From Bacilli bacterium (GTDB lineage: Bacteria; Bacillota_I; Bacilli_A; RFN20; CAG-826), in the NCBI GenBank assembly GCA_017651165.1, contig JAGCDH010000015.1, positions 13,748 to 77,747 on the forward strand: a stretch of DNA of 64,000 nucleotides, written 5' to 3'. Made by a program: the position numbers and the translations under genes. Positions 20,932 to 56,843 of this stretch are shown here, piece after piece (the first letter of the stretch is position 1; every line of letters begins with the position of its first letter). The notes under the pieces are model-generated. The model saw only the letters and a list, made by a program, of their open reading frames with translations. It did not search any database and had not been told where the DNA came from.

Positions 20932-21474
20932 TTACAAATACTTTTTAAAAGCGTTGTTCCAATCTTCTTGTTTGTAGAAGCGGAAACCATAGACATATTC
21001 TATTTTATTTTTAAGATGATTCTTCTCTGCGATTTTTAATAAAGCATTATATGCATTCTTACTATTGGCGAGCATCACGATATTTTCATCAATGCCTTTG
21101 AATGCTTCATAATCTAATTTGATATCTTCTAAATCATCATCTAGAGATGAGTTCTTAGGATTAGAACAGGATTCTACAACATCAAGGAACGCTATTTTCT
21201 TTTCTTTGAGCTCTTCAATAATTGCGGGCACGTCCCCTATCTTTTTATTTTTAACAAAGCTAGTATCTTTAAAAAAGGCATCAATGATGCGATACATCGG
21301 ATTATATGGGCTCATATAGTAAAAGTCTTTGTTGGCACCCCTTCCTTGAGGGGAAGTAATTGTGCCCACGATAATGACTTTTGTGTCTTCTCTAACAAGA
21401 TGATAATCACTATTGAAACTTTTGAATGGGCCACCTTGGCCATCTTCAACAATTGCTTTTGAAAACTTGCTCAT
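20932..21474 (-). CDS. uracil-DNA glycosylase superfamily protein (family 6 / DNA-deoxyinosine glycosylase-like)
   Basis: VIIVGTITSPQGRG...FYYMSPYNPMYRII and LDVVESCSNPKNSSLDDDL resemble the two conserved blocks of hypoxanthine-DNA glycosylase family proteins. Recognised by eye only. Confidence 0.45.
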   Translation of the reverse strand: MSKFSKAIVEDGQGGPFKSFNSDYHLVREDTKVIIVGTITSPQGRGANKDFYYMSPYNPMYRIIDAFFKDTSFVKNKKIGDVPAIIEELKEKKIAFLDVVESCSNPKNSSLDDDLEDIKLDYEAFKGIDENIVMLANSKNAYNALLKIAEKNHLKNKIEYVYGFRFYKQEDWNNAFKKYL

Positions 21475-21482
21475 TGAAGTTA

Positions 21483-22022
21483 TTAATTATCTTTAATGAT
21501 GATGTGCTTCCCACCATTTTCAAATTTATCAAATGGTTGGCTAGCAGATCTAATCCACATCGTTTTTATCTCAAAACCAGCTTGTTTCAATTTGTCTTCC
21601 AGATTTTTGCAATGTGAAAAATCAGTTTTGAAAGCGCTTAGTCCTTGCGAATTAAAGAGTTTAATCAACCCTTTAACATCTTTGATGTTGCTACAGGAGA
21701 AAACTATCTCTTCTTCAAATCTTTTGACGGACATCAAAAAGATAATATCTTTGCCTTCGATAAAAGCGATTCTTTTTAGTGTTTTGATGTTTTCTTCCAA
21801 GATCGAAGTGTTTTCGACATCTGTGTCAAAAACAAAGACAATCCGAGTGTCTCTTTTAATAGTTCTTGCTTTTGTTTCACTTATTTTGGAAGTAACGGGG
21901 TTGAGTTTTTCAATCTTGCCAGGATGAATGATATACTCGCTGCTTTTTGCGTGCATAAAAGAACTTAAAAAGTTCTTCTCACATTCTCCTTCGACGTAGT
22001 ATTGATAAACCCTTCTATCCAT
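21483..22022 (-). CDS. RloB-like / TOPRIM-type protein (AbiLii-like)
   Basis: YYVEGECEKNF (CEGExxExxY-type TOPRIM Glu) and VFVFDTDVE (DxD). The start lies 2 nt after the ATPase stop. Confidence 0.55.
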   Translation of the reverse strand: MDRRVYQYYVEGECEKNFLSSFMHAKSSEYIIHPGKIEKLNPVTSKISETKARTIKRDTRIVFVFDTDVENTSILEENIKTLKRIAFIEGKDIIFLMSVKRFEEEIVFSCSNIKDVKGLIKLFNSQGLSAFKTDFSHCKNLEDKLKQAGFEIKTMWIRSASQPFDKFENGGKHIIIKDN

Positions 22023-22024
22023 TA

Positions 22025-23131
22025 TTAGCTCTCCGCGATATTTAAAATATCGTTAACATCAGGACTAGCATTAAAGAAGTCGTTGTCATAAAGGTTCTTA
22101 ATGTTAACGTTATTACGTTTTTCAATAGAGGCGTTTGTCCAAAGAATTCTTGTGCCTTCTTCGTCTTTAAACTTGCTAATGAAATTAAATGTATGATTTG
22201 GTAATGGGAGCGCTAAAAGCTCTTCGTTATGAGTGGTAAAGAATAATTGTTCACCATCATCCAATAAAGAAATCATCTTCATCAAGCAGGCAATTTCTAT
22301 ATCCGAATTAACATAAGAGAATTGCTCATCTACAAAGTAAAAGCCATTTTTATGTTTCTTAATAGAATGGATAACACCAGCGATATTAACAGCGTATTTA
22401 GTGCCAGAAGATAATCTCTTAATAGAACTGAGTTTAGAACCATTAGTGACCGCTACTGCATCATCGTCTTCAAAAACAACAATGAATGAGTCTGGAATTT
22501 CTGAAGAAGGATAAACATTTTTGATTGTTGGATCCATAGTCTGCAAAACCTTTTTATATACTTCACAGAATTCTTCTTTTTCAGAATCGTCATATTTACA
22601 TTCAATTTTATCAAAGCCATTTTCAATAGATGGGAAGGCGAAATTCCAACCACCAAACACGAACTTATCTAAAGCGGTAAGATAGTTTTCAAATGGTTTA
22701 CTATCATCTAACTTATTAACAAGTGACTCATATGTATCATCATGTTGTGCTTGTAGTTGTCTTAATCTCACTAATAATTCATCCGTTTCTAAGTCTTTTT
22801 TAATCTCAACACGGAAAAAGACACCATTATTAAACATGCAGTCCATTAAGACAAAAAAGTTTCTGCTATCATCTTTAACAAGACTAGTAATATTATTAGA
22901 TTCTTTTTCTTTTAAAAACAAAAATACATGCCAAATAGCTCTACCTAAGGATGTTTTTCCAGAAGCATTAGAACCCACAACAATATTGACTTTGCGGTAT
23001 CTAACGCTTGGATAATTAGCAAAGTACTCTCCATTTAGGTTGCTACTTACCAATTTTTTAGGGTAAGAAAAATCAGTAGAGAAGTTATCAAAACAAAGGA
23101 AATTATCAAACTCCACTTTTAAGACTGCCAT
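22025..23131 (-). CDS. AAA_21/ABC-like ATPase (AbiLi / RloA-like)
   Basis: Walker A VGSNASGKTS, Walker B FYFVDEQ, H-loop FFTTHNEELL. Strong GAGGAG RBS. Confidence 0.65.
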   Translation of the reverse strand: MAVLKVEFDNFLCFDNFSTDFSYPKKLVSSNLNGEYFANYPSVRYRKVNIVVGSNASGKTSLGRAIWHVFLFLKEKESNNITSLVKDDSRNFFVLMDCMFNNGVFFRVEIKKDLETDELLVRLRQLQAQHDDTYESLVNKLDDSKPFENYLTALDKFVFGGWNFAFPSIENGFDKIECKYDDSEKEEFCEVYKKVLQTMDPTIKNVYPSSEIPDSFIVVFEDDDAVAVTNGSKLSSIKRLSSGTKYAVNIAGVIHSIKKHKNGFYFVDEQFSYVNSDIEIACLMKMISLLDDGEQLFFTTHNEELLALPLPNHTFNFISKFKDEEGTRILWTNASIEKRNNVNIKNLYDNDFFNASPDVNDILNIAES

Positions 23132-23265: not shown

Positions 23266-24471
23266 CTAATTCCAAAAATAAGAAGGAACACCATCTAAAA
23301 GAGGCAACTCACAAGAAACAATTCTTCCCTGGGTCGTTAAAGAATCAAGCAATCTTTCTGGATTGGTTTGATAACCTTTGAAAATAGCATATGCTGAAAA
23401 AAGTTCTTGGATTGCTTTTCTATGTGCCTGTTTTATTTGGTAAGACTGATCTTGTTTATAGATAGTGAACGCAAACACTATTGTCATATTAGAAGTAAAA
23501 TCAGTCATCTCTAATTTATCTAATAGCGGAAAGAAGTAGCTGTAGTCGCTTTTGTTTAAAGAATGACCATACACTACTACATTATTAAAACTTGGTTCAA
23601 TAGAGGCATTATGGACAATCATATCCATTTCCATCCTTCTGTTTGTCTTGGAGAATATAAATCTAACATCATCACTCTTGAAAACAGTAGAATCTATGCC
23701 AAATATAGGCATATCTAGTGTTCCATTAATACGTCTTAGAATCGCATCATACTTTTCGTTGTTGAAAGTTCCAAAGTTAAAGCTATCAATTGAAACCAAA
23801 GATGAATCCTCTCCTAAAGAAGAAATGGTTTCTGCGGCCTTCATATCATAATCAGCATTATGATGGTTGATAAAATGGTCGAAATAATCGTGCTGACGTT
23901 TTAAATATTTGCCAAAGTTAATCTCAAATTTGCGTAATTCATTAAGTAAAAACTCATAAAAAGAGTTTTCGTCTTCAAATAACAAACCACCGTGTTTTTT
24001 AAAAACAAATGCAGAAAGCGCTATAAAGTTAAAAGTCTTATTCTCGAACTTTTTCTCACCATTAATAATGCTGTAAACATCTTTCCAACAGATGGGTTGT
24101 TTTTTAACATTGATTCCATCTATAGAAGGTATAACAAGAGAAAAAAGTATTTCTTCTTCTATATCGCACCATCTGGCTTTCTCTTTTAATTGAGAATCAT
24201 CTGTAATAATTTCAAAAAATAAATCCCAGACATTTACTTCGTCAAATTTGTCAAAAGGTTCCCAACAATCAAGCAAGGTTGGTCCAAAAAAGCGTTTAGC
24301 AACAAGATTGCCTGAATACTTTTGAATCCATGATTTTATATAATTGTACTTTGCTTCATAATACTCGAAATAGTTGCCGTAAGAAGACATTAATCCGCAA
24401 TGAAGATCAAAGCCATTGCCTATTACTATTTTTACTTTTTTATTATTTTCGATAAACTCTGTTTTTTCCAT
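23266..24471 (-). CDS. AbiH-like abortive infection protein
   Basis: N-terminal VKIVIGNGFDLHCGLMSSY matches the AbiH family hallmark (GNGFDL...Y); 401 aa. Confidence 0.65.
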   Translation of the reverse strand: MEKTEFIENNKKVKIVIGNGFDLHCGLMSSYGNYFEYYEAKYNYIKSWIQKYSGNLVAKRFFGPTLLDCWEPFDKFDEVNVWDLFFEIITDDSQLKEKARWCDIEEEILFSLVIPSIDGINVKKQPICWKDVYSIINGEKKFENKTFNFIALSAFVFKKHGGLLFEDENSFYEFLLNELRKFEINFGKYLKRQHDYFDHFINHHNADYDMKAAETISSLGEDSSLVSIDSFNFGTFNNEKYDAILRRINGTLDMPIFGIDSTVFKSDDVRFIFSKTNRRMEMDMIVHNASIEPSFNNVVVYGHSLNKSDYSYFFPLLDKLEMTDFTSNMTIVFAFTIYKQDQSYQIKQAHRKAIQELFSAYAIFKGYQTNPERLLDSLTTQGRIVSCELPLLDGVPSYFWN

Positions 24472-24478
24472 AATTATA

Positions 24479-25264
24479 TTATGACACTATTAAACCATAA
24501 ATATACATATGCTTCATAAAAAATGGCACCCGTGTGTAAATGGGTGCCAATATCTTATATAGAGGCGAACTATTGCGTTTTTTGTTTAAAGTGAAATGAT
24601 AATAATCAAATAGGAGTGAATCGCTACTAATGGCTACACCACCAGAAGTGAATGGATCTGAACTATCTACGAGTTCTTTTCTAGGGAAAGCATAGTAGAT
24701 ATCATCTTCAACATAATAACCACATATATACTTTTCATTTGTGGGTGCTTGTACCACTACATAGTTATTATCTGTCTTAGATGTATTAACTCTTTCATCT
24801 AGAGATGAATATTGTCTTACATTAACCGTGCCATCTAGATAATAACTAGTTAATCCTAATAGATAAGGCACTAGTTCTTTATTATCTTCTTCATACCTGG
24901 CATTAGGTACTGAATAGTAATAGAAGTTAGTACCACTTCCAGAAGCAGAGATATATAACTCAAAGGTATTATCGTTTGTTTTATTATCTACCCAGTTCAC
25001 TGCATAGATCTTATTAACACTATCATCAATACCTAGATCTTCTAATCCCGCTTTGACTATTAGTTTAAAGACATTGTCTAAATCACTAGTGATATATCTT
25101 TCTGTATACGAAGTAGAAGAACCACTACTAGTTCTAGAAGAACATTTCTTTAAACCAAATAACACAAACAACAAGAGGATGATAATAAAAAGAAGTGTAC
25201 AAATAACACTAATAAAGGCTACCTTAAAAGTATATTTCTTCTTCCCCTTACCTTCTTCACTCAT
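24479..25264 (-). CDS. membrane-anchored protein of unknown function (paralog B of 32856..33581)
   Basis: Charged N-terminus, a single TM (ISVICTLLFIIILLLFVLFGLKKC), Tyr-rich ectodomain. Collinear similarity to the 241-aa ORF (DNVFKLIVK / DEVFKGIVK; LVPYLLGL / FVPYLLSL). Confidence 0.55.
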   Translation of the reverse strand: MSEEGKGKKKYTFKVAFISVICTLLFIIILLLFVLFGLKKCSSRTSSGSSTSYTERYITSDLDNVFKLIVKAGLEDLGIDDSVNKIYAVNWVDNKTNDNTFELYISASGSGTNFYYYSVPNARYEEDNKELVPYLLGLTSYYLDGTVNVRQYSSLDERVNTSKTDNNYVVVQAPTNEKYICGYYVEDDIYYAFPRKELVDSSDPFTSGGVAISSDSLLFDYYHFTLNKKRNSSPLYKILAPIYTRVPFFMKHMYIYGLIVS

Positions 25265-25346
25265 AGTGTAATTCTAATAAATTAGACCCCACAAATAAAG
25301 CCCTAATATCGGCGAGCATCGCACACATAGTAGCAATGCGAGCCAT
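25257..25346 (-). repeat. hairpin/mini-ORF element, full copy A (38-nt core 25309-25346; mini-ORF MARIATMCAMLADIRALFVGSNLLELHYE)
   Basis: Minus strand ATGGCTCGCATTGC-TACTATGTGT-GCGATGCTCGCCGA. The arms pair as GGC/GCC plus GCAUUGC/GCGAUGC. The mini-ORF stop TGA overlaps the paralog B start (ATGAGTGA). Confidence 0.5.
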
Positions 25347-25433
25347 GTGCCATTTCATCTGCTTTATTATAAAGCACAACAAGCAATTTGTCATTTTCGT
25401 TCATAAATGCAAAGTGTCTTTTAAGCATTAGTT

Positions 25434-26009
25434 TTATTGTATTCCTTCTAAAAAGTCTCTAACAGCTAAATCAAAAACACTTTTTAGCTCTTCACCATAC
25501 AATTCCGGTAAATATAACAGCGAATCATATTTCCCGCTATATTTATGATGCATAACAGCATATGAAAAAGCATACGCATCTAATTCGCAATCTTGTTTAA
25601 AATATTTGATGTTTTCATTTCCGTCCTTATCTAAAGACTTGATATAGTTCTCCCCTTCTACAATCCATCTTTTTATATATTCTTCACCAATTTCCGATTT
25701 GCCATCTTTATACAAAACTATCTGAATGTGCTGATAGATGTGCCTTATTTCATGAAGTATAAAATATTCAATTTCATATACTTTATTGCATTTAAAAGCG
25801 GCATCGACAAAAGCTAAATTAATAGACAAAACATTGGTTATTCTGTTGACTGTTGCAGTAATTGAAACATTATCATCCCAAGCAAAACACCACTTGATTG
25901 GTTCATCGATGTCTGTATAAATTTGGTTAGATTCAATAAGTAACTTGATTAGTGGACTATATACTTCTATCAAACGCTTAAAATGATCTTTATTCGTGCT
26001 GATACTCAT
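25434..26009 (-). CDS. HExxH zinc metallopeptidase-like protein (ImmA/IrrE-like)
   Basis: FILHEIRHIYQH plus downstream ELDAYAFSYAV (E..A..FA third-ligand block of COG2856-type peptidases). ATG at 26009 lies 4 nt after the NACHT gene stop; the track start at 26168 overlaps that gene. Confidence 0.5.
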   Translation of the reverse strand: MSISTNKDHFKRLIEVYSPLIKLLIESNQIYTDIDEPIKWCFAWDDNVSITATVNRITNVLSINLAFVDAAFKCNKVYEIEYFILHEIRHIYQHIQIVLYKDGKSEIGEEYIKRWIVEGENYIKSLDKDGNENIKYFKQDCELDAYAFSYAVMHHKYSGKYDSLLYLPELYGEELKSVFDLAVRDFLEGIQ

Positions 26010-26013
26010 AAAA

Positions 26014-29000
26014 TTAAAGCAATTGAAAGTATATTGAAACAATTGATGCTTTAGAAAAATGAATGCTAGACAAATTATCAAGCAATTCTTGGTATTTTTG
26101 CTTAAGAGCGTTGTTAGATTTAATCGTCTCTCGATATTCAAAGTACAATTCACAAACAAAAGTTTCAAGAATAGTTTTTGATTCTCTTAGTTTGTTAAGC
26201 TCATCGTCATTAATTAAACTTTTAACAAAACTATTAATAACTTCTAAAACTTCCGGCATCAAAGAATCGGATGGGTATGTTAAAATCTTACGGAGAATGG
26301 CATTTAAGCAAATAGGATTATTAAGTTTGTATAAAGCAATCAATTTATGCTTTTGGAAAACATTCAAAGATAGATTGCTTCTTTTCTTAGAAGAACCATA
26401 ATTATTTTTTATAAATGCCATTCCTAATTTAATTTCATTATTAATATCAAGTTCTTTAATGCTTTCGAATGAAGCCAATTCAAAATCTATTACCTTAAAT
26501 AAGTATTCTTTGGCATCATCAGAAGCAAATAATAATGATTCCAATTCACACAGAGCGCGATTAATTGTTTCAAACACCGCTCTGCAATATTTGTGTGTGC
26601 TAATATACGAAAAAAGGAATTCAATAGTTTTTGTGGCAGAAGGATAATCTGCGAATAACGGTTTGCTTATATGCACCGCAAGATTGCTTTTAGAAAAGCT
26701 GAGTGGTCTTCTTTGATCCTCAATCATCATTTTATCAAATAAGGCTCCCACCATTTTAAGCCCTTCACCAAGCCTGCAGTTTTGGACTGTCAAAAACAAC
26801 TCACAAGCCTTTTCTAAATAATACGGATCACACTTTTTAAAATCCAATGAATCAATATGAAACTTTTTATTATTAAATAAACAAGCTTCTATAATTATTT
26901 GTTTTTTCTCTTCCTCTTTACTTTTTAAAGACTCAAACTGTTCTTGAGAAAACAACTTATTTGGATTGTTACCAAAAATCTCATAATGAACAGTCGAACA
27001 ACCTATCAAAGCATTGAGGCAACTGTTTCTAAGTTCTTCATCTACTGCTAGAAATCCTACTATGTAAGGAGCTTGTTGCGCTGTGTCTATATCGTTAATT
27101 GAACTAGTCAGCACCTTGAAAGCATATCTCTTAATCCAATCTCTTTGTTGCTCGGAAATATCGAACTTGATTTGCCCTACCAAAGCCAAAATAAGGGAAT
27201 TATCAAAAACAAATACCCTATCAGCGTCAATGCCGTTCATCCATATTTCGCAATGCTTATTTCTTTCATCATAAGTGATCGTTTTATCAATAATGATGAC
27301 AGATATAGAATATACAAGCCACCTTGAGAAAACGGTCATTTCGTTTGTAGGCAACGACAAGATATAGTCAACAAGAGCTTTTGCTCGTTCAATGTCTCTG
27401 CGGTGCAAGATTTCAGCCACTTCATTTTCGATATATTTACTTCTGTCAATATAGTTTTCTTTCTTTTGAATTTGTTCTTTTCTTTCGGCCAACATTTGCT
27501 TTGGACTTTTGATACTGCCGTCGTATCCTTCGTAGTAAGTTGTAATTCGCTTGTCTTTTTTATATTTGGAATAAATGATAGAAAACTTTTCTTTATAAAC
27601 ATTTTGATCATAGTTATCAACAAAGAAAAGATTGTATAAGGATGAGCCCAAATCTAATTTGCGTCTCAAGTCATACTTTTTCTTATAAGGAACTCCCAGG
27701 GAAGCAAAAATATGGTTCTCAAAAAATTGCTTGTTTGAATCTACCTCGTTTTCTTCGTGAAAAAGTATTATATCGTTAATTACTATTTCATACGAATTAG
27801 CTAATGCAAAAATGCCATCAGGATAATAACAAAACAAATAATAATCGATAAAAGATAATAGCGAAAGAGAAGCAACAGTAGCCGAATTCTTAACACATAT
27901 TTCATATATTCGTTTAACAACCGCCTTACATAGTTCTTTGTTCGAAGCGCTATTTTTTAAAAGTTTTTCTGTTTCAAGTTTTGCAACATAAAACATATCC
28001 GAGATGAAAGTTGAACTAGACAATTCTGACTCGCCCAAAGAAAACAAATCACTATGAAAAACAAATGATTTGTTTATTCCGTTAGCTAAAGTAACTTCTA
28101 TCTTACTGGCGTTTTCTTTTGTAAGAAGATTGCCCCCAGCAAAATCCGCAAGTTTAAACAGATAACACAAAGCAAGAGAAAAATTGGATCTTATTAAAGT
28201 GATGAAAAAATTAGAAACAAGAGGATAATAACGATAATCAAGTTCGTCAGATAAACTATGAGCTCCTTCAGAAAAACCAAAGCGATCTTTAAATCTGGTA
28301 TCAAAACCATCATAATGCGGAAAAATAGTCGCTCCGGTTTTTTTATTTGGATTAAGCGTGAAAAACTTATATGAAATATCTGTCATAAAAGAAGCAAAAT
28401 CTTCCGAATAAACTATTTGTTCGTTGAGAGAATCTTCGATATGGTATTTTAATAGACTTATCAAAATCCTCTTTCCGTCTTCGTAAAAATTATAGAGGTA
28501 TTTTTCAAGGATGCCGTTCATGAGAGGGATAAACCATTTAACAGAATGTTGCTGAATATAAAAAGGGACAGTCATTAAAACATCTATCAAATCAAAATCA
28601 ATCCATTCCTCATTGATTAACAGATTAAATACTTCTTCTGTGATATCACTGATATGTTTGGAAGCTACTGAGATATATGTCTTTTGCTGAATTAAGCCAT
28701 TTAAAAGACCAATAACATCTGCCAAATTAATCTTTCCGTGGCGAATCAAATCTAAAGGAAGATTTTCTAATAGTGCCAATCTACCAGCACCTATCGGTTT
28801 AAAAACAAAGTCCGAATTGCGCTTTGCTGCTTCGAACGCATATTCGTTACATATTTCGATAAAAGTTGAATAATCAATGTCGTTATACTTTGCGAGGAAA
28901 CTAATAAATGCTTGGCAATTATCCGAAATCAATATGCCAGCAACTGTGCTCTTGAAATATCTCTCGCGATGACACCCAATGAGTATTTCAGCGACAGCAT

Positions 29001-30585
29001 CATAATTCATTTCGTAGATTAAATCGCCAATCCAAATCTGATATCTCCTAAAGCCGCTTTCGCCATATTTGATGATGCCATCTAAAAACGAGTCAACGCT
29101 TTCTTTGTTTTTAAAGTCATCGGATAAATATTGGCAAAAACATATATCTTCAAAAAGATCGTATTTCATCCTTATTCCATACTTTTCATTTTTTAAAACG
29201 ACGCCGTTGTTAATAAGGATGCTTAAAACCTTTTCATCAACAAGAGATTCGTCAATTCCTAGTTTTCTTTCTTTAGACCTCTCAATAACAATGTCTTTGA
29301 CTGTTTTTATCAATAGGTGTCTATTATCTATTTTCTTCTCTGAAAGACAAATACATTTGTCATAAATCACCCTTTTAAGTTCGGCAACGCTGGTAATATT
29401 ACTATCAATAGAATTCTTAACAATAATATCAACGTATAAAGGTGTCGTAACAACCTCGGAAAAGCTTTTTCCAAGTTTCTTCAAAACAGGAAACTCTTTG
29501 AGCAAGATATTCTTTTCTTCTGTTGAAAGGTTGTCTATGGCAACAGAACATAGGTCTTTTTCGTATTTTAAAAAGAGGTTTTGAAAATGAAGATAATCAC
29601 GTGTCCTACAGGTGACAAAGATTTTTAAATTATCGTACTCTCTGGTTAATAGTAGTAATTCGTCGATAGTTTTATCTTTGCCGAGATAATCTGACACAAA
29701 TTCCAGAGAATCAATACAAAATGTCACTATTTTATTTTTTGTATAATTCAACAATTTTCTTAAATCTATTGACCAAAGATCGTTAATGTTTTTTGCATTA
29801 ATCACTTCTTCTGCTCTGGCAAACAAAAGAATCTCACTATCTTTTATTACTTCCTTGCAAATGGCAGACTTACCAGAACCGGCATCACCTTTGATAACAA
29901 TTATCTTTGATTTACTGCCGCGAATTGTTTTAATTGTTGCTGATCTATCCAAATGAAACCCGTTATTGCCGATTGTTGTGAATATGTCATCCAAAAAGCA
30001 TCCTTTTGATTTTTTTACGGCATTAATTAATTTCGCGCTTATATCACCGACACTAACCGCTTCTTCATAAAGATATTCATATACTCTATTCCTAAACGTT
30101 TTATCATATCTTGATTTTTTTATGACGTCACTCAAAAACACAATATCGCTTTCAGGATTAAATTCGATTCCGTCTATATTTTCTTTAGAAAGCGATTTGA
30201 TATCAGCCATATTAAGAAGAAAGAAAGTAATCCTTTTTATGTCTTTGACATCTTTGTCTTCCTTTTTCCTCAATTCTTTAAATGATTTCAAAGTACTCGT
30301 TATTTTAGCCTTTGAATATTTGGTAACACTCACTTGTATAAACACGTCACCATCTCTGGACTTTAAATCAACGCATTTCCATCCGGGTTTGATAGCATTT
30401 AAATTGCAAAAATCTTGATTGTAATATGCCTCACATATTTCTTTTGCAAAATCCTCAAAAAGAATAGCTTCATCAATTAAACCCGCCGATATGCTTGCAT
30501 TAACTACATTTGTATAGTTTTCAATTCTGTCCTTGATGAAATCTATTTGTTTTTTGATAGGTGTTTTATCCATAATTGCTTTCAT
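26014..30585 (-). CDS. NACHT/STAND-class NTPase, 1523 aa, with N-terminal effector-like domain and long helical C-terminal region
   Basis: Walker A IKGDAGSGKSA, Walker B IVTFCIDSLEF (hhhhDxhDE-like), sensor-1-like IFVTCRTRDY. N-terminal CVDLKSRDGDVFIQVSVTK is a possible Mrr/PD-(D/E)xK-like core. About 1100 aa of helical repeats follow. Confidence 0.6.
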   Translation of the reverse strand: MKAIMDKTPIKKQIDFIKDRIENYTNVVNASISAGLIDEAILFEDFAKEICEAYYNQDFCNLNAIKPGWKCVDLKSRDGDVFIQVSVTKYSKAKITSTLKSFKELRKKEDKDVKDIKRITFFLLNMADIKSLSKENIDGIEFNPESDIVFLSDVIKKSRYDKTFRNRVYEYLYEEAVSVGDISAKLINAVKKSKGCFLDDIFTTIGNNGFHLDRSATIKTIRGSKSKIIVIKGDAGSGKSAICKEVIKDSEILLFARAEEVINAKNINDLWSIDLRKLLNYTKNKIVTFCIDSLEFVSDYLGKDKTIDELLLLTREYDNLKIFVTCRTRDYLHFQNLFLKYEKDLCSVAIDNLSTEEKNILLKEFPVLKKLGKSFSEVVTTPLYVDIIVKNSIDSNITSVAELKRVIYDKCICLSEKKIDNRHLLIKTVKDIVIERSKERKLGIDESLVDEKVLSILINNGVVLKNEKYGIRMKYDLFEDICFCQYLSDDFKNKESVDSFLDGIIKYGESGFRRYQIWIGDLIYEMNYDAVAEILIGCHRERYFKSTVAGILISDNCQAFISFLAKYNDIDYSTFIEICNEYAFEAAKRNSDFVFKPIGAGRLALLENLPLDLIRHGKINLADVIGLLNGLIQQKTYISVASKHISDITEEVFNLLINEEWIDFDLIDVLMTVPFYIQQHSVKWFIPLMNGILEKYLYNFYEDGKRILISLLKYHIEDSLNEQIVYSEDFASFMTDISYKFFTLNPNKKTGATIFPHYDGFDTRFKDRFGFSEGAHSLSDELDYRYYPLVSNFFITLIRSNFSLALCYLFKLADFAGGNLLTKENASKIEVTLANGINKSFVFHSDLFSLGESELSSSTFISDMFYVAKLETEKLLKNSASNKELCKAVVKRIYEICVKNSATVASLSLLSFIDYYLFCYYPDGIFALANSYEIVINDIILFHEENEVDSNKQFFENHIFASLGVPYKKKYDLRRKLDLGSSLYNLFFVDNYDQNVYKEKFSIIYSKYKKDKRITTYYEGYDGSIKSPKQMLAERKEQIQKKENYIDRSKYIENEVAEILHRRDIERAKALVDYILSLPTNEMTVFSRWLVYSISVIIIDKTITYDERNKHCEIWMNGIDADRVFVFDNSLILALVGQIKFDISEQQRDWIKRYAFKVLTSSINDIDTAQQAPYIVGFLAVDEELRNSCLNALIGCSTVHYEIFGNNPNKLFSQEQFESLKSKEEEKKQIIIEACLFNNKKFHIDSLDFKKCDPYYLEKACELFLTVQNCRLGEGLKMVGALFDKMMIEDQRRPLSFSKSNLAVHISKPLFADYPSATKTIEFLFSYISTHKYCRAVFETINRALCELESLLFASDDAKEYLFKVIDFELASFESIKELDINNEIKLGMAFIKNNYGSSKKRSNLSLNVFQKHKLIALYKLNNPICLNAILRKILTYPSDSLMPEVLEVINSFVKSLINDDELNKLRESKTILETFVCELYFEYRETIKSNNALKQKYQELLDNLSSIHFSKASIVSIYFQLL

Positions 30586-30639
30586 ACTTATATTATGCGA
30601 TATCTAAAGGAACGATGGAATTAGTTTGAAAATCTAGGC

Positions 30640-30670
30640 AAAAAAAGATGATGCCAATAAAAGCATCATC
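30640..30670 (-). terminator. rho-independent terminator between rfbB and the NACHT gene
   Basis: Minus strand GATGATGC-TTTTATTG-GCATCATC followed by TTTTTTTG. Confidence 0.7.
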
Positions 30671-30702
30671 GGTATTGTTTCATCTTCTGTTAAATTCTAG
30701 AC

Positions 30703-30719
30703 AGTAATGCGAGCCATGT
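30703..30719 (-). repeat. hairpin/mini-ORF element, truncated copy B (left arm only)
   Basis: Minus strand ACATGGCTCGCATTACT. It shares the first ~16 nt with copies A and C and then diverges (MARITV-stop). Confidence 0.45.
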
Positions 30720-30728
30720 ACTATTTTG

Positions 30729-31757
30729 CTATTTCCTGTTATCGTAGTTCTTCTTTAGCCATTCGGCGTTTTGTGCCATACATTCATTGAGCCAAGTAGA
30801 ACCTTTATCCGATAAATACCATTCAATGGTTTTCTTAATGCCAACTTCAAAAGTGGTAATTGGATCCCAACCTAATTCTTTATTAGCTTTCGCAGGATCA
30901 ATCGCATATCTTTGGTCGTGTCCATGTCTATCCGCGACAAATTCAATTAATGATACTGGTTTATTCAGTTCAGAAAGAATGCGTTTAACAATATACAAGT
31001 TATTTCTTTCGTTATGACCACCTAAGTTATATACTTCCCCTACTTTGCCTCTTTCTAATACCGCAAGGATACCTCTACAGTGGTCTTCAACATATAACCA
31101 GTCTCTAACATTAATGCCTTGACCGTAAACAGGTAGTTTTTGATCATGGTTAGCTTTATATATCATTAAAGGTATTAGTTTTTCTGGGAATTGATATGGG
31201 CCATAGTTATTAGAACATCTAGAGATAGTAACTGGTAGACCATAGGTACGGTAGTACGCTAATACTAATAGGTCCGCACTAGCTTTAGATGTGCTATATG
31301 GGCTAGATGTATGTAATGGAGTATCTTCGTGGAAGAATAAGTCTGGTCTATCTAATGGTAAATCACCATATACTTCATCAGTAGATACTTGATGATATCT
31401 TTCAATGCCGTATTTCCTACACGCATCCATTAAAACTTCTGTACCAATAATATTAGTGGTTAAGAAACTTTCTGGATCTAAGATAGATCTATCAACATGA
31501 GATTCTGCTGCAAAGTTAACAACAATATTTGGTTTTTCTTCTTCAAATATCTTATTAATTGCTTCTCTATCTCTAATATCAGTCTTATAGAACTTATAGT
31601 TAGGATTATTTAATTCTTCTTTGATAGTATTAGGATTAGCGGCATATGTTAAAGAATCAACATTCACCACTTTCCAGTCTTTTCTTTCATTTAATAATAA
31701 TTTGCAGAAGCAGTTACCAATAAAACCCGCTCCACCTGTCACTAATATTGTTTTCAT
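30729..31757 (-). CDS. rfbB: dTDP-glucose 4,6-dehydratase
   Basis: ILVTGGAGFIGNCF Rossmann motif, STDEVYG, YSTSKASAD (YxxxK); 342 aa. Confidence 0.9.
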   Translation of the reverse strand: MKTILVTGGAGFIGNCFCKLLLNERKDWKVVNVDSLTYAANPNTIKEELNNPNYKFYKTDIRDREAINKIFEEEKPNIVVNFAAESHVDRSILDPESFLTTNIIGTEVLMDACRKYGIERYHQVSTDEVYGDLPLDRPDLFFHEDTPLHTSSPYSTSKASADLLVLAYYRTYGLPVTISRCSNNYGPYQFPEKLIPLMIYKANHDQKLPVYGQGINVRDWLYVEDHCRGILAVLERGKVGEVYNLGGHNERNNLYIVKRILSELNKPVSLIEFVADRHGHDQRYAIDPAKANKELGWDPITTFEVGIKKTIEWYLSDKGSTWLNECMAQNAEWLKKNYDNRK

Positions 31758-31807
31758 ATCATTCTCCTTTCGGCGAGCAATGCATGAATCGATGCAATGC
31801 GAGCCAT
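31754..31807 (-). repeat. hairpin/mini-ORF element, full copy C (38-nt core 31770-31807; mini-ORF MARIASIHALLAERRMI)
   Basis: Minus strand ATGGCTCGCATTGC-ATCGATTCAT-GCATTGCTCGCCGA, directly followed by AAGGAGA. The mini-ORF stop overlaps the rfbB ATG as ATGA. Confidence 0.5.
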
Positions 31808-31814
31808 ATATTGC

Positions 31815-32846
31815 TTAGGTAACCTTCTTTGGTTTAAGTTTCAAAGTGTTGCCAATTATTACCGTCTTCATTATATAAACGTCTAGTTCCTTTTTGCGCG
31901 CAATTTCAATAATTGCGCCCTTGTCATATTCGCTTATCTTTTCGCCTAAATAAACTGCTTTGGGTTTTGCGACCCCTAGTTTAACATAATTATCATTTGC
32001 TCGACCAATGATGGGGTTGTAATTATAGCCAATGAGCCTCCATTCGTTTTCATAATACCACGGAAGTTTCTTTCTATAATATGCGTTTTGAATAAAATGA
32101 ATTGTCTCTTTTTCGTTATAGTTTTTAAGAGATTGCTCAAGAGGAAAAACAATTGGATTGTATCCTCCATCGGCATCAATCTTCTCCAAAACCGCATCTA
32201 TGTAATTATTGCACAAATCCGTAACATTGTATTTATCGTTTTGATAAATAACAGGTAGTAATGGATCATGAATGATGTCTTTATTGAAAGAATAGCCTTT
32301 AATGACATCTAGTTCCGAAACAATATCAAAGATAGATTCTTGATGCTCGATGCCTATTCTTCTTAAGGTACTGTAGTCATATTCAAGAACAAATCCAGTT
32401 GCCAATCCTGCATAATGTGCCCACATTATTTCTTGGTTAACATCAGTGGAAAAGCAAGCAAATGCATACACATTATTGCCAAATTGAATGTCTGGGGCCA
32501 AATCTCTCTCATAAATACAATTAACAAGTTCGTTTATTTGGCTACAATGTAAATTGTTTTGCTTTAATAATCTCTTTAAGAATTTATTATTCTTAACAAG
32601 ACTGCTTTTGATATGTTTTTTAATCTGTCTTTCAGAAAATCTAACAGCAGCATCGTATGGATCGTTAAACGCTACTGGGCAAGTTGCATATATCTCATCT
32701 TTTATGAATTGATTGATTGTGTGCTTATTAATTGGTCTATATCGGTATAGGGAAAACTTGTCATTATTGATAGCAATATTGACCTCTGTTTCTTTTTCCG
32801 TCCTAATTACTTTGACAGTGTAGTTTTTATTTTTCGCTATTTTCAT
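31815..32846 (-). CDS. DUF2971-family protein
   Basis: LYRYRPINKHTINQFIKDEIYATCPVAFNDPYD matches the DUF2971 N-terminal hallmark (Y.Y....l..l....l.f..p..fNDP.D). The start lies 9 nt after the paralog A stop. Confidence 0.55.
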   Translation of the reverse strand: MKIAKNKNYTVKVIRTEKETEVNIAINNDKFSLYRYRPINKHTINQFIKDEIYATCPVAFNDPYDAAVRFSERQIKKHIKSSLVKNNKFLKRLLKQNNLHCSQINELVNCIYERDLAPDIQFGNNVYAFACFSTDVNQEIMWAHYAGLATGFVLEYDYSTLRRIGIEHQESIFDIVSELDVIKGYSFNKDIIHDPLLPVIYQNDKYNVTDLCNNYIDAVLEKIDADGGYNPIVFPLEQSLKNYNEKETIHFIQNAYYRKKLPWYYENEWRLIGYNYNPIIGRANDNYVKLGVAKPKAVYLGEKISEYDKGAIIEIARKKELDVYIMKTVIIGNTLKLKPKKVT

Positions 32847-32855
32847 AGTCTACTT

Positions 32856-33581
32856 CTAATCCATCAGTTTTTGAAAATATCCATAAAGCGGACTATCTAA
32901 TCCAATAACTTGATTAGATGTCTCACTAAATGGATTACTAATCAATATTTTATTTTGATAAATATAATATTCGTTATTTTGATAATAAAAGCCAGAGAAA
33001 TATTTATCAGTGCCACTCATATTGCTGCTTATTAGATATCTACATTCTTTATCAGTAGTTATTGTTTCTGACGTTGGTAAATATGTATCAAGGGATATAG
33101 TTCCTTCATCTAAAGATAATTTAGTATCTAAATCTAAAGATAATAAATATGGAACAAAATTATCAAAGCCACTATAAGGATAATTGCTTAATCTATAATA
33201 ATAGACTTTAGATTCACTTCTAACTTCAATATTAAGATCAAATGATGTAGAAATATCACTATATGTTACTGATACCACATCCGTTAATATATCTTCATCA
33301 AATCCATCCACAACCAATTGATTCTTAACAATACCTTTAAATACCTCATCTATCTTATTAACACCATAATCATACTTTATAGAGGAACTATTACTAGATT
33401 GAGGGTCACTACTATTGTTATTACATTTCTTTAAACCAAGAAGAACAAGTAATAAAAGGATAACAATAAAAAGAAGAGTACCAATAACAGAAGCAATAAC
33501 TATTTTTAAGTCACGTTTCGCTTGTTTTTTCTTCTGCTCCTTATTATCTTGTTCCAACTCTTTTTTCTCTTTGTTTAACAT
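32856..33581 (-). CDS. membrane-anchored protein of unknown function (paralog A of 24479..25264)
   Basis: Lys/Glu-rich N-terminus, a single TM (IASVIGTLLFIVILLLLVLLGLKKC), Ser-rich linker, Tyr-rich ectodomain. Confidence 0.55.
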   Translation of the reverse strand: MLNKEKKELEQDNKEQKKKQAKRDLKIVIASVIGTLLFIVILLLLVLLGLKKCNNNSSDPQSSNSSSIKYDYGVNKIDEVFKGIVKNQLVVDGFDEDILTDVVSVTYSDISTSFDLNIEVRSESKVYYYRLSNYPYSGFDNFVPYLLSLDLDTKLSLDEGTISLDTYLPTSETITTDKECRYLISSNMSGTDKYFSGFYYQNNEYYIYQNKILISNPFSETSNQVIGLDSPLYGYFQKLMD

Positions 33582-33645: not shown

Positions 33646-34416
33646 TTATTTTAAACCGCAAATAATTCTATGATTTATTTCGTTACAAATATTATCTAAG
33701 TCTGGCATTAAATGGAATTCATCATAACCAAGTTTCTCTAAATATAAGAGCGCTTCCGCTCTGATGGCATCATCAATAATGATAATTTGAGATTTCTCGG
33801 CGATTCTATTCTCTACAGATTCTTTTGTTAATTTGGTCGGAACAACAAAAAGCCCTTGTTGGACAAGCATCCTTTGATTGCGATAGTTAGGCTTCGCTGT
33901 GTATATTCCAGTTTTCTTTGATAGTTTCTTAAATTCCTTATTTAGTATATCGCAATAAGGCACATCTATTTGAAATGCCATATCATCTAACGTCAGGGTT
34001 GCTGTTTTTGAATTAAAATATGGCTCTGACTTAATTGAGTCATATATAACGTTGGTATTTGTTTTATCGAGCGCATATATGATATATTCTCCGTCTTTTC
34101 CCTTGGCGTTTCTTAGGCAAAAGAATAATGCAACATAAGGATTGCTCGTGAAATCAATTAATCTAGTCATTAACCCACAATGTTGCGCCAGTGCAAGAAA
34201 TTCCCAACAGTTATTAGCGGTTGAATATAAACCATAGTATTTTTCGAATGTTTTTAATATTTGATATTCCTTTTTCGAATAGTCATTATCTCTGATTATT
34301 TTTGGATACAATTGATTCTTATTATTGACGCCACGAAATATAGCATTTCTTTCCATCAACTCGTCAAATAGTTGTTTTAATTCTACTAAAGTTTTTATTC
34401 TAATAACGCTTCCCAT
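33646..34416 (-). CDS. FRG-domain protein
   Basis: IFRGVNN (FRG motif) and LALAQHCGLMTRLIDFTSNPYVALFF (AQHyG.pT.llD.T block). AGGAG RBS. Confidence 0.65.
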   Translation of the reverse strand: MGSVIRIKTLVELKQLFDELMERNAIFRGVNNKNQLYPKIIRDNDYSKKEYQILKTFEKYYGLYSTANNCWEFLALAQHCGLMTRLIDFTSNPYVALFFCLRNAKGKDGEYIIYALDKTNTNVIYDSIKSEPYFNSKTATLTLDDMAFQIDVPYCDILNKEFKKLSKKTGIYTAKPNYRNQRMLVQQGLFVVPTKLTKESVENRIAEKSQIIIIDDAIRAEALLYLEKLGYDEFHLMPDLDNICNEINHRIICGLK

Positions 34417-41383: not shown

Positions 41384-42697
41384 TTAATAGCCATTCCAAT
41401 CCCATTCAAATCTTTCAATGTCTTCTTCTATAAGTTCATCTCCGATTTGAACTTCTATAATATGTAATTCTTCTATTGCTTTAATTGAGTAGCGGTCTTC
41501 TTTATTAATAATAACGCTTTCACCAGCATTAACTTCTCTAACAGAATCGTTTATTAATAATAGGCCTTTACCTTTAACGATAGTCCATGTTTCGCTTCTA
41601 TGTTTATGCTTTTGATAGCTGATGCTCTTGCCTGGTATAATCACTAGTTCTTTAGTGAGCGATTTAATACCATTATCAAATTGTTGGAAATATAGCACTC
41701 TATATTCGCCCCATATTCTCTTTTCAAACATCGGACGATTATCAGGAACATATTTCTTTAAGTATGAGCTGGCGTGTTTGTCAGATACTAAGATGCCGTC
41801 TGGTGACGCTGCAACAATAATATTCTTTAATCCTAAACCCACGATTGGTATCGCAAGTTCATTAACGATATGTGTGTTTTCACAGTTTTCACCTAACACG
41901 CAGTTATTACCTGTTGGGTCTTGCATGGCCTCAGTAAATGTATTCCATGTACCTAAGTCCTTCCATTCACCATCATATTCAATAACTTTAATATCTTTTT
42001 CATGCTCCGCCACTGCGTAGTCAAAGCTAATCTTTGTTAAATTAGCATAGTTATCAAATAGCTCTTTATAGTTAGATGTTCCACATAACTCTTTTGCTTT
42101 ATCTAAAAGATATTTAATCTTAAATGCGAAAACACCACCATTCCATAAAGCACCTTGTTTGATATATTCTTCAGCAGTTGCTAAATCTGGTTTTTCTTTA
42201 AACTGAACCTCGTCTTTTTTAGGAATGATGTAACCATACTTCTCAGATGGATATGTTGGTTTAATACCCATTAATGTAAGATTACTTTTGCCTGCAACCT
42301 CATACATCTTTTGTAGTGTTTTAAAATAGCCTTCTTCCACAAGTGGGTCAACAGGGCATATCACAACCCCTTCGTTTTCACTAATTCCTAAAACATAATG
42401 AAAATACGCTACAGAAAGCGCTACTGCGGGGAAGGTATCTCTACGACAAGGCTCAATTGATATTTCAACATTTTCACGCAGCTGTCTTTTAATTGACGCT
42501 ACTTGTGTTTCTGAAGTAGCGACTACAATTCTGGCATCAGGAGATACCTTTTTTATCATTCTATACATTCTTTGAACCATGGACTCATGTCGTCTATCTT
42601 CCGTTCTAAGAATTTTTAGAAACTGTTTGGATCTAACCTCATTAGAAAGAGGCCAAAGACGTGTGCCTGATCCGCCAGACAGTAGAATAATATTCAT
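41384..42697 (-). CDS. manC: mannose-1-phosphate guanylyltransferase with C-terminal cupin (type II PMI-like) domain
   Basis: MNIILLSGGSGTRLWPLS nucleotidyltransferase motif; C-terminal cupin (YQKHKHRSETWTIVKG). The track start at 42727 is TTG, so ATG at 42697 was chosen. Confidence 0.8.
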   Translation of the reverse strand: MNIILLSGGSGTRLWPLSNEVRSKQFLKILRTEDRRHESMVQRMYRMIKKVSPDARIVVATSETQVASIKRQLRENVEISIEPCRRDTFPAVALSVAYFHYVLGISENEGVVICPVDPLVEEGYFKTLQKMYEVAGKSNLTLMGIKPTYPSEKYGYIIPKKDEVQFKEKPDLATAEEYIKQGALWNGGVFAFKIKYLLDKAKELCGTSNYKELFDNYANLTKISFDYAVAEHEKDIKVIEYDGEWKDLGTWNTFTEAMQDPTGNNCVLGENCENTHIVNELAIPIVGLGLKNIIVAASPDGILVSDKHASSYLKKYVPDNRPMFEKRIWGEYRVLYFQQFDNGIKSLTKELVIIPGKSISYQKHKHRSETWTIVKGKGLLLINDSVREVNAGESVIINKEDRYSIKAIEELHIIEVQIGDELIEEDIERFEWDWNGY

Positions 42698-42874
42698 AAA
42701 ATTGACTTTTTTTCCTTTTTTAAACAAATTCTCTATATAAAGATATTAATTCGTGGATTATTAGTAAACGCCGTTATGCTTTCATTTGATGACATAAATG
42801 GCTCTTCCACTCTTTAGGCTACAAATAGCAAAAAGACGCTTTACCACAAATAGGTGATTTTTTATTTTTAATGC

Positions 42875-44119: not shown

Positions 44120-44120
44120 A

Positions 44121-45344: not shown

Positions 45345-45361
45345 AATTGATAAACCAACCA

Positions 45362-45934: not shown

Positions 45935-45969
45935 ATTTGTTCTCCTAAATTCGTAAACTATTATCTAAC

Positions 45970-47061: not shown

Positions 47062-47081
47062 ACTAATTTTCTCCTTATCTA

Positions 47082-48363: not shown

Positions 48364-48375
48364 AGTATTTCTCCT

Positions 48376-49278: not shown

Positions 49279-49295
49279 ATTATTGCATTTAAAAA

Positions 49296-50312: not shown

Positions 50313-50355
50313 GTGACAAAAATGTCTCCTTTCACAGCGCAATGCATATAATAAA

Positions 50356-51918: not shown

Positions 51919-51933
51919 AATCACATAATGAGC

Positions 51934-53265: not shown

Positions 53266-53289
53266 TTTTAATTGAATCCTTCGATACCA

Positions 53290-54051: not shown

Positions 54052-54052
54052 A

Positions 54053-55456: not shown

Positions 55457-55510
55457 AAAACAAAACTCCTAAACAGTAGTTTGAAAAAATAAACAGGATG
55501 CAATCTTAAA

Positions 55511-56842: not shown

Positions 56843-56843
56843 A

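Follow-up and report, generated by a model that had tools for sequence, protein, structure and literature searches.

Two diverged surface-protein paralogs beside AbiH-like and DUF2971 genes: probable independent cargo in a variable glycan and defence region

In one chromosomal region of a Bacilli genome, two homologous membrane proteins are each encoded immediately ahead of a gene for a cytoplasmic protein, AbiH-like in one case and of the DUF2971 family in the other. The question that this raises is whether each pair forms a two-gene unit, a conserved surface component with a swapped intracellular partner, as the first-pass annotation proposed, or whether the partners are simply neighbours. 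Here the membrane proteins are termed memA and memB, and their family mem; the window is the whole stretch of 64,000 nucleotides that was analysed. We think it reasonably probable that memA and memB are diverged, genus-restricted surface proteins, that the AbiH and DUF2971 genes are independent cargo, and that mem is likely an accessory of glycan biosynthesis. The four open reading frames (memA, DUF2971, memB and AbiH) were all confirmed on the minus strand and are set out here with their surroundings.

41384-58373, minus strand: adjoining surface-polysaccharide locus (manC-like, amino-sugar pathway, RmlC-like, GT11, GDP-mannose dehydratase, MurJ/Wzx-like flippase, GT2 and Bac_transf genes)
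33646-34416, minus strand: FRG-domain/PDC-S15 gene directly upstream of memA, 5'-side cargo (Pfam and PADLOC matches)
32856-33581, minus strand: memA, 241 aa (ORF, AF2 model)
31815-32846, minus strand: DUF2971/PDC-S31 gene, 343 aa, in the slot directly after the memA stop (Pfam, PADLOC)
30729-31757, minus strand: rmlB-like dTDP-glucose 4,6-dehydratase, a conserved framework gene
25434-30585, minus strand: cargo block between rmlB and memB, comprising a 1523-aa SMEK_N/STAND-like NTPase (SMEK_N Pfam match 2.8e-20) and an overlapping 244-aa ORF
24479-25264, minus strand: memB, 261-aa paralog of memA
23266-24471, minus strand: AbiH-like gene, 401 aa (Pfam AbiH)
21483-23131, minus strand: AbiLi/AbiLii-like ATPase and RloB-like pair, cargo downstream of AbiH (PADLOC; the ATPase matches AbiLi at 3.2e-22 and AbiLii at 1.6e-3)
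20932-21474, minus strand: 180-aa gene bounding the variable region on its distal side, conserved in relatives (73-83% identity to counterparts in L010, L011 and L020)

The proposed homology of the two membrane proteins was borne out. BLASTP aligns memA and memB at 35% identity over 231 aa (E=6e-16), and the transmembrane (TM) and ectodomain blocks picked out previously are present in both. memA is a type II (N-in/C-out) membrane protein with a K/E-rich cytoplasmic tail and a TM helix of ~24 residues, followed by a juxtamembrane Cys and then by a disordered Ser/Asn linker that leads into an alpha/beta ectodomain; the AF2 model (pLDDT 89.4) places a helix at residues 2-50, disorder at 53-65 and a fold at 74-241. 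memB has the same N-in/C-out topology. No relative of memA was found in Pfam, PADLOC, PDB or BFVD, and the memB ectodomain likewise belongs to no Pfam family and resembles no solved or viral structure. The range of mem is narrow: it occurs in one of the 48 genera of the taxonomic family and in 14 of the 23 genomes of that genus, as a single copy in most species, and only 90 representatives were found among 1.84 billion proteins.

Lgt and LspA are encoded in the window's genome, but mem was rejected as a lipoprotein. The lipobox was defined as L-[ASTVI]-[GAS]-C following a short signal peptide, and mem has G-L-K-K-C after a hydrophobic span of ~24 residues and a charged tail of 25-60 residues. 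Its LKKC compares with L-[STA]-[AGS]-C in 36/36 other lipoprotein candidates from the same genome; furthermore, the juxtamembrane Cys is missing from fused forms of mem. Surface exposure of the C-terminal domain, as first supposed, is upheld by two kinds of relative. In fusions to a GT2 glycosyltransferase it stands behind the cytoplasmic GT2 domain and a single TM, and in other organisms it is found inside canonical lipoproteins. We infer that the job of the mem protein is extracytoplasmic.

The tight coupling originally read from the spacing of the genes did not hold up. The gaps are indeed short, 9 nt between memA and DUF2971 (stop at 32856, ATG at 32846) and 7 nt between memB and AbiH (stop at 24479, ATG at 24471), but 51 of the 52 genes in the 64-kb window share one strand, and their same-strand gaps have a median of 20 nt, with 19 of 49 at 10 nt or less; gaps of 7-9 nt are therefore not distinctive here. 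That behind memB is short because the native stop was lost and the frame continues for another 33 codons, across the terminator-like hairpin of memB itself.

24518-24549, minus strand: terminator-like hairpin of memB, UGGCACCC-N10-GGGUGCCA then U6, within the run-on tail; the AbiH ATG follows 46 nt downstream

Residues 1-228 of memB are homologous to the family; the last 33 (residues 229-261, 24580-24482) are run-on tail and have no counterpart in any homolog. Where a 91%-identical relative has TAA, memB has AAA (24580-24578). Contigs from four runs, produced by two studies, show the identical loss, which is therefore taken as real for this strain; the native distance between memB and AbiH would be ~106 nt. 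The hairpin (24549-24524, then T6) has a dG of -18.9 kcal/mol (z -3.2), with none of 200 shuffles equally good. An analogous terminator-like hairpin, unrelated to that of memB, occupies the mem–AbiH junction of L032, so one separates the two genes at both loci where they are adjacent. The AbiH gene also has its own conserved -10-like box (ATAATATAATTATGG) directly before its ATG. The 9-nt gap behind memA contains no terminator, and memA and DUF2971 are thus probably co-transcribed.

The case against dedicated partners comes from comparison across the genus. In ~19 related contexts, the gene downstream of mem varies among at least 12 different types or is lacking, as follows.

L001: VanZ/Big_2
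L003: opposite-strand ORFs, then rmlC
L004: rmlB, 18 nt downstream
L007: rmlA, 16 nt downstream
L010: DUF3800
L011: SLFN-type helicase
L013: AAA_30 helicase
L020: 463-aa protein without an assigned family, with DUF2971 upstream of mem
L021, L022, L026 and L028 (four species): Y_phosphatase3 lipoprotein
L024: AAA_21
L025: HigB
L030: opposite-strand gene
L038: HTH_3

These genes are mutually unrelated and often of housekeeping or envelope type, which speaks against a two-gene design with a dedicated AbiH or DUF2971 component, and DNA homology between strains extends to the mem stop codon and no further. Neighbour co-occurrence, which a conserved system of membrane component plus effector would show, is lacking across these contexts. 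The idea of a module with swapped partners survives in part: mem is fused to GT2 in three species and to an RT-protease in one lineage, but AbiH and DUF2971 do not look like dedicated partners.

The family assignments of the two downstream genes themselves stand. AbiH is an abortive-infection gene of Lactococcus lactis (Pfam PF14253) that is described as a single-gene system. The gene at 23266-24471 scores 58.6 bits against the curated PF14253 cut-off of 30.9 (E 1.3e-15) and matches nearly the full profile (residues 16-323 on positions 3-252 of 260); it lies in a defence island, and the PADLOC AbiH model matches it weakly (3e-4). It has at least 447 homologs, with PF14253 in all matches listed. 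Upstream of the relatives with 57% and 45% identity lie genes for HsdR or for an AAA_30 helicase, no mem homolog being present within 4 kb, and such unrelated neighbours are the genomic picture expected of a single-gene system. The locus departs from that picture in that AbiH follows mem at two loci of this genus: the closest relative (68% identity; L032/L033) also stands directly downstream of a mem module, so the adjacency has been seen twice. The mem modules beside the two AbiH genes share just 33% identity. We attribute the repeated adjacency to a shared insertion slot, a functional link being still conceivable, and read the AbiH gene as putative self-sufficient, single-gene cargo of the abortive-infection type.

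The gene at 31815-32846 matches the DUF2971 profile PF11185 at 27.8 bits against a cut-off of 22 (E 6.6e-6) and PADLOC PDC-S31 (PDLC04990) at 5e-33. The earlier statement that no role has been assigned to DUF2971 has been overtaken: the family is a predicted ADP-ribosyltransferase (PMC12522546), and a 316-aa DUF2971 protein, Aristaios, is listed among one-locus antiphage systems (PMC11381338). The window gene is likened to Aristaios and PDC-S31 by its DUF2971 domain and its strong PDC-S31 match, and differs from Aristaios in being chromosomal rather than plasmid-borne. Its weak AbiGi similarity in Pfam fits the relationship described between ART, DarT and AbiGi, where a modified H-Y-E with ExE makes up the conserved ART catalytic motifs (PMC12522546). 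A relative at 58% identity (L031) has no mem nearby, and one at 54% stands upstream of mem in the sister species G159 (L020). We read the gene as self-sufficient, predicted ADP-ribosyltransferase-type single-gene defence cargo.

Several junctions between framework and cargo carry a hairpin element.

31770-31807, minus strand: junction hairpin element, TGGCTCGCATTGC-N-GCATTGCTCGCC, lying between the stop of DUF2971 and the ribosome-binding site of rmlB
30703-30726, minus strand: 5' half-copy, directly after the rmlB stop
25309-25346, minus strand: full copy, 45 nt upstream of the memB ATG

Copies bracket the cargo block at 25434-30585. The copy before memB belongs to a leader of ~110 nt, which is conserved between memB and the S-type 5' module of L011 and L030. 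The window's genome has three copies, and 7 of the 23 genomes of the genus have one or two. An integron-like cassette array was rejected on account of this low copy number and the lack of an adjacent integron-type tyrosine recombinase; the genome's only two tyrosine recombinases lie on other contigs. As in defence-island hot spots and variable polysaccharide loci, near-identical strains have wholly different cargo between conserved framework genes (rmlB, the 180-aa gene and manC), with homology breaking off sharply at gene ends. Unlike in such hot spots, defence and glycan genes are interleaved gene by gene, mem, although a framework gene, is both hypervariable and mosaic, and a hairpin element of low copy number is found at several junctions.

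In essence, we propose a hypervariable chromosomal region in which surface-glycan genes (rml, man, glycosyltransferases) are interleaved with anti-phage genes, and in which memA and memB are two diverged copies of a resident, signal-anchored (N-in/C-out) surface protein. The slot directly after each mem stop would be a recurrent site of insertion or exchange, filled here by the AbiH-type gene and by the DUF2971 gene (ADP-ribosyltransferase-like, Aristaios-type), and the space between the hairpin elements preceding mem and flanking rmlB would be a second. The short gaps would then reflect the general gene packing of the genome and, for memB, also the lost stop.

The likeliest role of mem is that of an accessory of surface-glycan decoration, acting alongside a GtrB/GacI-type GT2 polyprenyl-phosphate sugar synthase. 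An envelope-glycan role is suggested by the fusion of its TM and ectodomain to a GtrB-type GT2 sugar-lipid synthase (GtrB/PgfS/PpgS-like) in three species (G069, G143 and G152), none of which has a stand-alone mem, and also by the polysaccharide locus that adjoins the region. In the GacI-GacJ and PpgS-Rv3632 systems, a GT2 polyprenyl-phosphate sugar synthase has a small membrane partner, sometimes fused to it (10.1101/180810). The same two arrangements are seen here, the GT2 enzyme being joined to the mem TM and ectodomain in some cases and separate from a stand-alone mem in others, and the context is again one of rhamnose and polysaccharide genes. The resemblance is one of functional analogy only, and mem was rejected as a GacJ/DUF2304 partner: it is not homologous to GacJ, has no DUF2304 Pfam match, and has one TM (AF2 model) rather than three, plus an ectodomain of ~170 aa. 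In the window's genome, the GT2 ortholog ends 5 residues past its single TM, and its gene is not adjacent to mem (C10 for mem against C7). The unusually conserved TM helix of mem may contact the single TM of the GT2 enzyme; such contact cannot be general, since in most species with a stand-alone mem the GT2 lacks a TM altogether. The argument from fusions is weakened by the RT-protease that is fused in frame to a mem module in one lineage (L032/L033), with AbiH again downstream, as this shows that partners extend beyond glycan enzymes.

A different view, which we consider unlikely though worth keeping in mind, is that mem is a stand-alone surface factor in phage-host conflict, acting independently of its neighbours, either as a phage receptor under diversifying selection or as a protein that blocks adsorption or injection in the manner of superinfection exclusion. 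The protein is surface-exposed, the family is very narrow and fast-evolving, and mem is a hypervariable mosaic of two modules in which ectodomains reassort, constantly associated with defence genes and variable glycan genes. Alleles are 45-77% identical in strains that share a flanking rmlB at 94-95% identity (dS ~0.5, dN/dS 0.07) and whose intervening genes are wholly different. The ectodomain dN/dS, at 0.24-0.58, is well above that of rmlB but stays <1. mem is unlike any known exclusion protein or receptor, a weak PHROG 'Sie-like' match spans the TM only, and a surface factor alone hardly explains a GT2 fusion conserved in three species. Most upstream neighbours of mem across the genus are defence genes, which counts against our main reading, since by guilt-by-association mem itself could be defence-related.

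More doubtful again is a modular arrangement in which the portable mem TM and ectodomain act as a sensor or anchor for interchangeable cytoplasmic effectors, AbiH and DUF2971 being coupled to it as neighbouring genes and the RT-protease through fusion. Were this true, cytoplasmic single-gene Abi systems would gain a cell-surface input. The terminator-free memA–DUF2971 gap is consistent with it, but in G159 DUF2971 precedes mem, and in L031 it has no mem beside it; the mem–AbiH adjacency recurs in L032/L033 with AbiH 68% identical, but a hairpin intervenes at both loci and the mem modules have diverged to 33%. The RT-protease is a defence-type enzyme, whereas the GT2 fusions point elsewhere. 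Likewise, a rapidly evolving ectodomain (by the dN/dS comparison with rmlB) and a setting nearly always amid defence genes would suit a sensor, but the downstream genes include rmlA, rmlB, a secreted lipoprotein phosphatase and a VanZ-like gene, and AbiH and DUF2971 are both described as single-gene or one-locus systems.

That memB is a decaying, functionless duplicate and neither mem copy is functionally linked to its surroundings is very improbable: the lost stop with its junk tail, the divergence from memA and the single copy in most species would fit, but memB has an unbroken frame over the 228 residues homologous to the family and retains every invariant family position, four runs give the identical sequence, the 91%-identical allele has a normal stop, and the position of memB is the ancestral one in sister species G159.

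Four ORFs underlie the first-pass annotation's proposal of a modular two-gene design, in which a surface component is joined to a swapped intracellular partner, and all four were confirmed.

32856-33581, minus strand: memA, membrane protein of 241 aa
31815-32846, minus strand: DUF2971 gene, 343 aa, 3' of memA
24479-25264, minus strand: memB, membrane protein of 261 aa
23266-24471, minus strand: AbiH-like gene, 401 aa, 3' of memB

The two membrane proteins, whose family is referred to here as mem, are indeed homologous along their length (35% identity over 231 residues, E=6e-16), and both partner assignments are sound: the AbiH-like protein scores 58.6 bits against PF14253 (cut-off 30.9) and the DUF2971 protein 27.8 bits against PF11185 (cut-off 22), the latter also matching the PADLOC candidate PDC-S31 at 5e-33. 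The reported near-identity of the TM segments was borne out as conservation at the protein level. Recent gene conversion of this segment was rejected, because the same codon is used at only about 6 of the 11 identical residues, with pS at 0.44. These sequence facts stand; it is the functional reading placed on them that mostly does not.

A fixed pairing of mem with a partner did not survive tabulation of its neighbors. The gene immediately 3' on the same strand was scored in about 19 distinct mem contexts, over which it varies.

Genes immediately downstream of mem in the window and in related loci (L numbers)
Window: DUF2971 (memA), AbiH (memB)
L032/L033: AbiH
L007: rmlA at 16 nt
L004: rmlB at 18 nt
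L001: VanZ/Big_2 protein, then glycosyltransferases
L010: DUF3800
L011: Schlafen-type helicase
L013: AAA_30 helicase
L038: HTH_3
L024: AAA_21
L025: HigB
L021, L022, L026, L028 (four other species): Y_phosphatase3 protein, a canonical lipoprotein
L020, L029: unknown-function proteins
L003, L030: no same-strand gene

The Y_phosphatase3 lipoprotein is the sole mem neighbor conserved across species. It is 365 aa long at L021 (9841-10938), with orthologs at L022, L026, and L028, and several paralogs at 24-31% identity are encoded elsewhere in the window's genome. In alignments of 3' ends, similarity between strains ends at the mem stop codon in every case.

The 7-9-nt gaps from which tight coupling had been argued are common in the window, where 51 of 52 genes lie on the same strand: same-strand gaps have a median of 20 nt, and 19 of 49 measure 10 nt or less. 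The 7-nt gap before AbiH is, moreover, secondary. All memB homologs end ~33 residues sooner, including a 91%-identical relative that reads AAT AAG TAA where the window has AAC AAA AAA (24580-24578), and DNA similarity between the two ceases at the lost stop codon. An assembly error was ruled out as the source of this loss, the contigs being identical over the stretch across four runs and two studies. The extended frame reads through UGGCACCC-N10-GGGUGCCA-UUUUUU (24549-24518), which folds at -18.9 kcal/mol (z=-3.2), with 0 of 200 shuffles folding equally well; memB thus carries its own terminator-like signal. AbiH starts 46 nt past the hairpin and is preceded by a conserved ATAATATAATTATGG. At the memA-DUF2971 junction, a hairpin was looked for and none was found, and, as only 9 nt separate the genes, read-through transcription from memA into DUF2971 is likely. 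The same can be said of the majority of gene pairs in this array. No RNA run was found to contain the stretch. The short spacing between mem and its partners is probably not meaningful, and neither short gaps in a dense single-strand array nor ORF ends made by lost stop codons should be taken as signs of functional coupling.

If AbiH and DUF2971 did work with mem, and so were tied to a surface sensor, the result would be a new trigger of abortive infection. We regard this as improbable: the idea gains from the recurrence of the mem-AbiH adjacency, seen in the window and at L032/L033, and from the fusion of a mem module to a defense-type enzyme, but the genes downstream of mem vary, and relatives of both partners are found elsewhere than directly downstream of mem. 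In the sister species (G159), the 54%-identical DUF2971 gene fills the rmlB-mem slot and so is upstream of mem, and no mem was detected within 4 kb of the 58% relative at L031, with hits accepted up to E<=10. HsdR or a helicase precedes the AbiH relatives of 57% and 45% identity, which are without mem, and members of the AbiH family number at least 447, compared with about 65 close mem homologs. A 316-aa DUF2971 protein, Aristaios, is listed as a one-locus antiphage system (PMC11381338), and its family has been predicted to consist of DarT/AbiGi-like ADP-ribosyltransferases (PMC12522546).

The closest AbiH relative (68% identity, L032/L033) lies directly 3' of a mem-containing ORF (profile E=7e-56). 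The 795-aa product of that ORF joins RVT_1 and Trypsin_2 domains to a full mem module spanning residues 559-793. The mem modules beside the two AbiH genes are only 33% identical, a terminator-like hairpin and T-run of unrelated sequence separates mem from AbiH at both loci, and similarity between the loci returns just 15-20 nt ahead of the AbiH ATG. Because mem has diverged relative to AbiH, hairpins stand at both loci, and similarity resumes so near the start codon, the two adjacencies are read as the same slot occupied twice rather than as an operon. The reverse transcriptase (RT)-protease-mem ORF occupies 1518-3920 in L032 and 412-2814 in L033 (representative P0214), encodes 795-800 aa, and includes the mem tail, TM, and ectodomain. 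No intergenic relic was found at its RT-protease/mem junction; if real, it would be a membrane-anchored RT-protease defense protein with an extracellular domain.

The sequence evidence points instead to AbiH and DUF2971 as ordinary single-gene cargo in recurrent slots. In essence, the region would be a hypervariable surface-glycan and defense locus in which resident genes (rmlB, mem, a 180-aa gene, and manC) frame slots filled by single-gene or small defense systems, AbiH and DUF2971 being two such fillers. No new kind of defense system is required by these data. The rmlB of the window is 94-95% identical to those of L007, L010, and L011 (dS about 0.5, dN/dS 0.07), whereas the cargo between the framework genes has nothing in common. 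The mem genes lie in a defense island of ~31% GC, compared with 35-37% outside, that contains FRG/PDC-S15, a Schlafen-type helicase fusion, Abi_2, a GHKL ATPase, an SMEK/STAND NTPase, and AbiLi/AbiLii, with an rmlB-like gene placed mid-island among them. Directly upstream is a surface-polysaccharide locus (41384-58373).

Past the polysaccharide locus lies an AbiEii-family nucleotidyltransferase toxin gene (59499-60416), so that the glycan genes have defense and toxin-antitoxin genes on either side. Sugar-nucleotide and polysaccharide genes are also interleaved singly with defense genes, both in the window (30729-31757, 41384-42727, and 47863-48363) and at L007, L010, L011, L032, and L038. The former include rmlA, rmlB, rmlC, UDP-glucose dehydrogenase, CapD-like, Wzy, and flippase genes and the latter FRG, STAND, GmrSD, SIR2, Pycsar, RT, and AbiH, with no separate island. 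Such gene-by-gene mixing in small-genome bovine gut bacteria joins the two main determinants of phage susceptibility. The 180-aa gene (20932-21474), which follows AbiLii and is often preceded by an AAA_21-type pair, is 73-83% identical in L010, L011, and L020, and the cargo before it differs; by this pattern, it acts as a conserved gene marking the edge of the variable region.

A conserved hairpin element, aAAatAGtACnTGGCTCGCATTGC-N8-14-GCGATGCTCGCCGA, brackets the variable cargo between rmlB and mem, lying immediately 5' of mem genes and immediately 3' of rmlB and, in the window, also 5' of rmlB.

Positions of the junction element
Window, minus strand: 25309-25346, 31770-31807, 30703-30726
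L003: 5957
L004: 10964
L007: 10932
L010: 1660, 5899
L011: 1870, 5920
L013: 2253
L020: 9167
L030: 108

The 1.14-Mb genome has only three copies; across the genus, 7 of 23 genomes carry one or two, and one of these seven lacks mem. RNAalifold predicts 10 pairs, 4 of them with compensatory changes; an Rfam search returned no family, and the ATG of a supposed 'MARIA' mini-ORF within the element is not conserved. Candidate roles for the element are those of a regulatory leader, a terminator, or a recombination anchor. An integron-like cassette system built on it was rejected, there being no recombinase near, few copies, and no tie to mem in other species.

The mem proteins themselves are an undescribed but real surface protein family that is worth noting. 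Searches of Pfam, PADLOC, PHROG, and NCBIfam gave no family, only spurious TM matches. When 1.84 billion representatives were searched exhaustively with a profile, 90 members were found; mem occurs in 1 of 48 genera sampled within the family and in 14 of 23 genomes of its genus, mostly as a single copy. The host is an uncultured bovine gut bacterium (genomes of 1.0-1.8 Mb), and the window's genome has exactly two copies. Scans of the genome_contigs set with the mem alignment and with AbiH as queries found nothing. The AlphaFold2 model (53 homologs, pLDDT 89.4) has a long TM-containing helix, a disordered Ser/Asn linker, and a compact alpha/beta domain, for which neither Foldseek against the PDB and BFVD viral models nor a sequence-profile search of solved chains in the PDB gave a significant match.

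The gene is a two-module mosaic with its breakpoint within the low-complexity linker. In the 5' module (leader, tail, and TM), memB is ~90% identical to the L011 copy, but their ectodomains are 24-64% identical in nucleotide sequence. The L003 and L010 copies show the reverse, with differing 5' modules and 86-99% identity between ectodomains. Between ectodomain classes, synonymous sites are saturated (dS>1), and dN/dS is 0.24-0.58 compared with 0.07 for rmlB. A very narrow, uncharacterized surface family with this hypervariable architecture and a fold unmatched among solved and viral structures is of interest in its own right.

The topology is N-in/C-out, because natural fusions place the mem domain after a single TM behind a cytoplasmic enzyme and two distant members carry it within canonical lipoproteins. 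These two, P0236 (441 aa) and P0240 (359 aa), have an extra N-terminal domain before the mem ectodomain, which is thus used in other surface proteins outside the close clade. Lgt and LspA are present in the window's genome, and in all 36 other lipoprotein candidates there a short signal peptide leads into L-[STA]-[AGS]-C, whereas in mem proteins a long charged tail and a ~24-residue hydrophobic span precede L-K-K-C. A lipoprotein reading of this invariant Cys was rejected, given the missing lipobox, an overlong hydrophobic span, and fused forms that are without the Cys. On these grounds and the topology, mem is interpreted as a type II membrane protein held by a signal anchor.

With moderate confidence, mem is considered most likely to serve as an envelope-glycan accessory, a role that its neighborhood of rml, man, and glycosyltransferase genes fits. 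In three genomes (G069, G143, and G152), none of which has a stand-alone mem, a protein of 447-480 aa has the mem TM and ectodomain as its C-terminal half, and its N-terminal half is a GtrB/PgfS/PpgS-type GT2 (Pfam Glycos_transf_2 4.6e-30; phrog_841 2e-32). Small membrane partners such as GacJ for GacI and Rv3632 for PpgS bind, stimulate, and sometimes fuse to such enzymes (10.1101/180810), although GacJ is not homologous to mem. Confidence is only moderate because the RT-protease fusion reveals that the cytoplasmic tail tolerates other fusions and because the GT2 of most species with a stand-alone mem lacks a TM. The natural fusions offer a testable lead, namely a possible joint action of the ectodomain and a GtrB-type sugar-lipid synthase. 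This GT2 is a core enzyme of the genus, present in 19 of 23 genomes (7 of 7 of high quality), and has three length forms.

About 239 aa: no TM
275-294 aa: one TM (window's genome, G156, and sister species G159)
451-480 aa: TM and mem ectodomain, fused

The GT2 of the window's genome (contig C7, 44619-45440) ends five residues past its single TM. Two genomes hold short and fused copies together.
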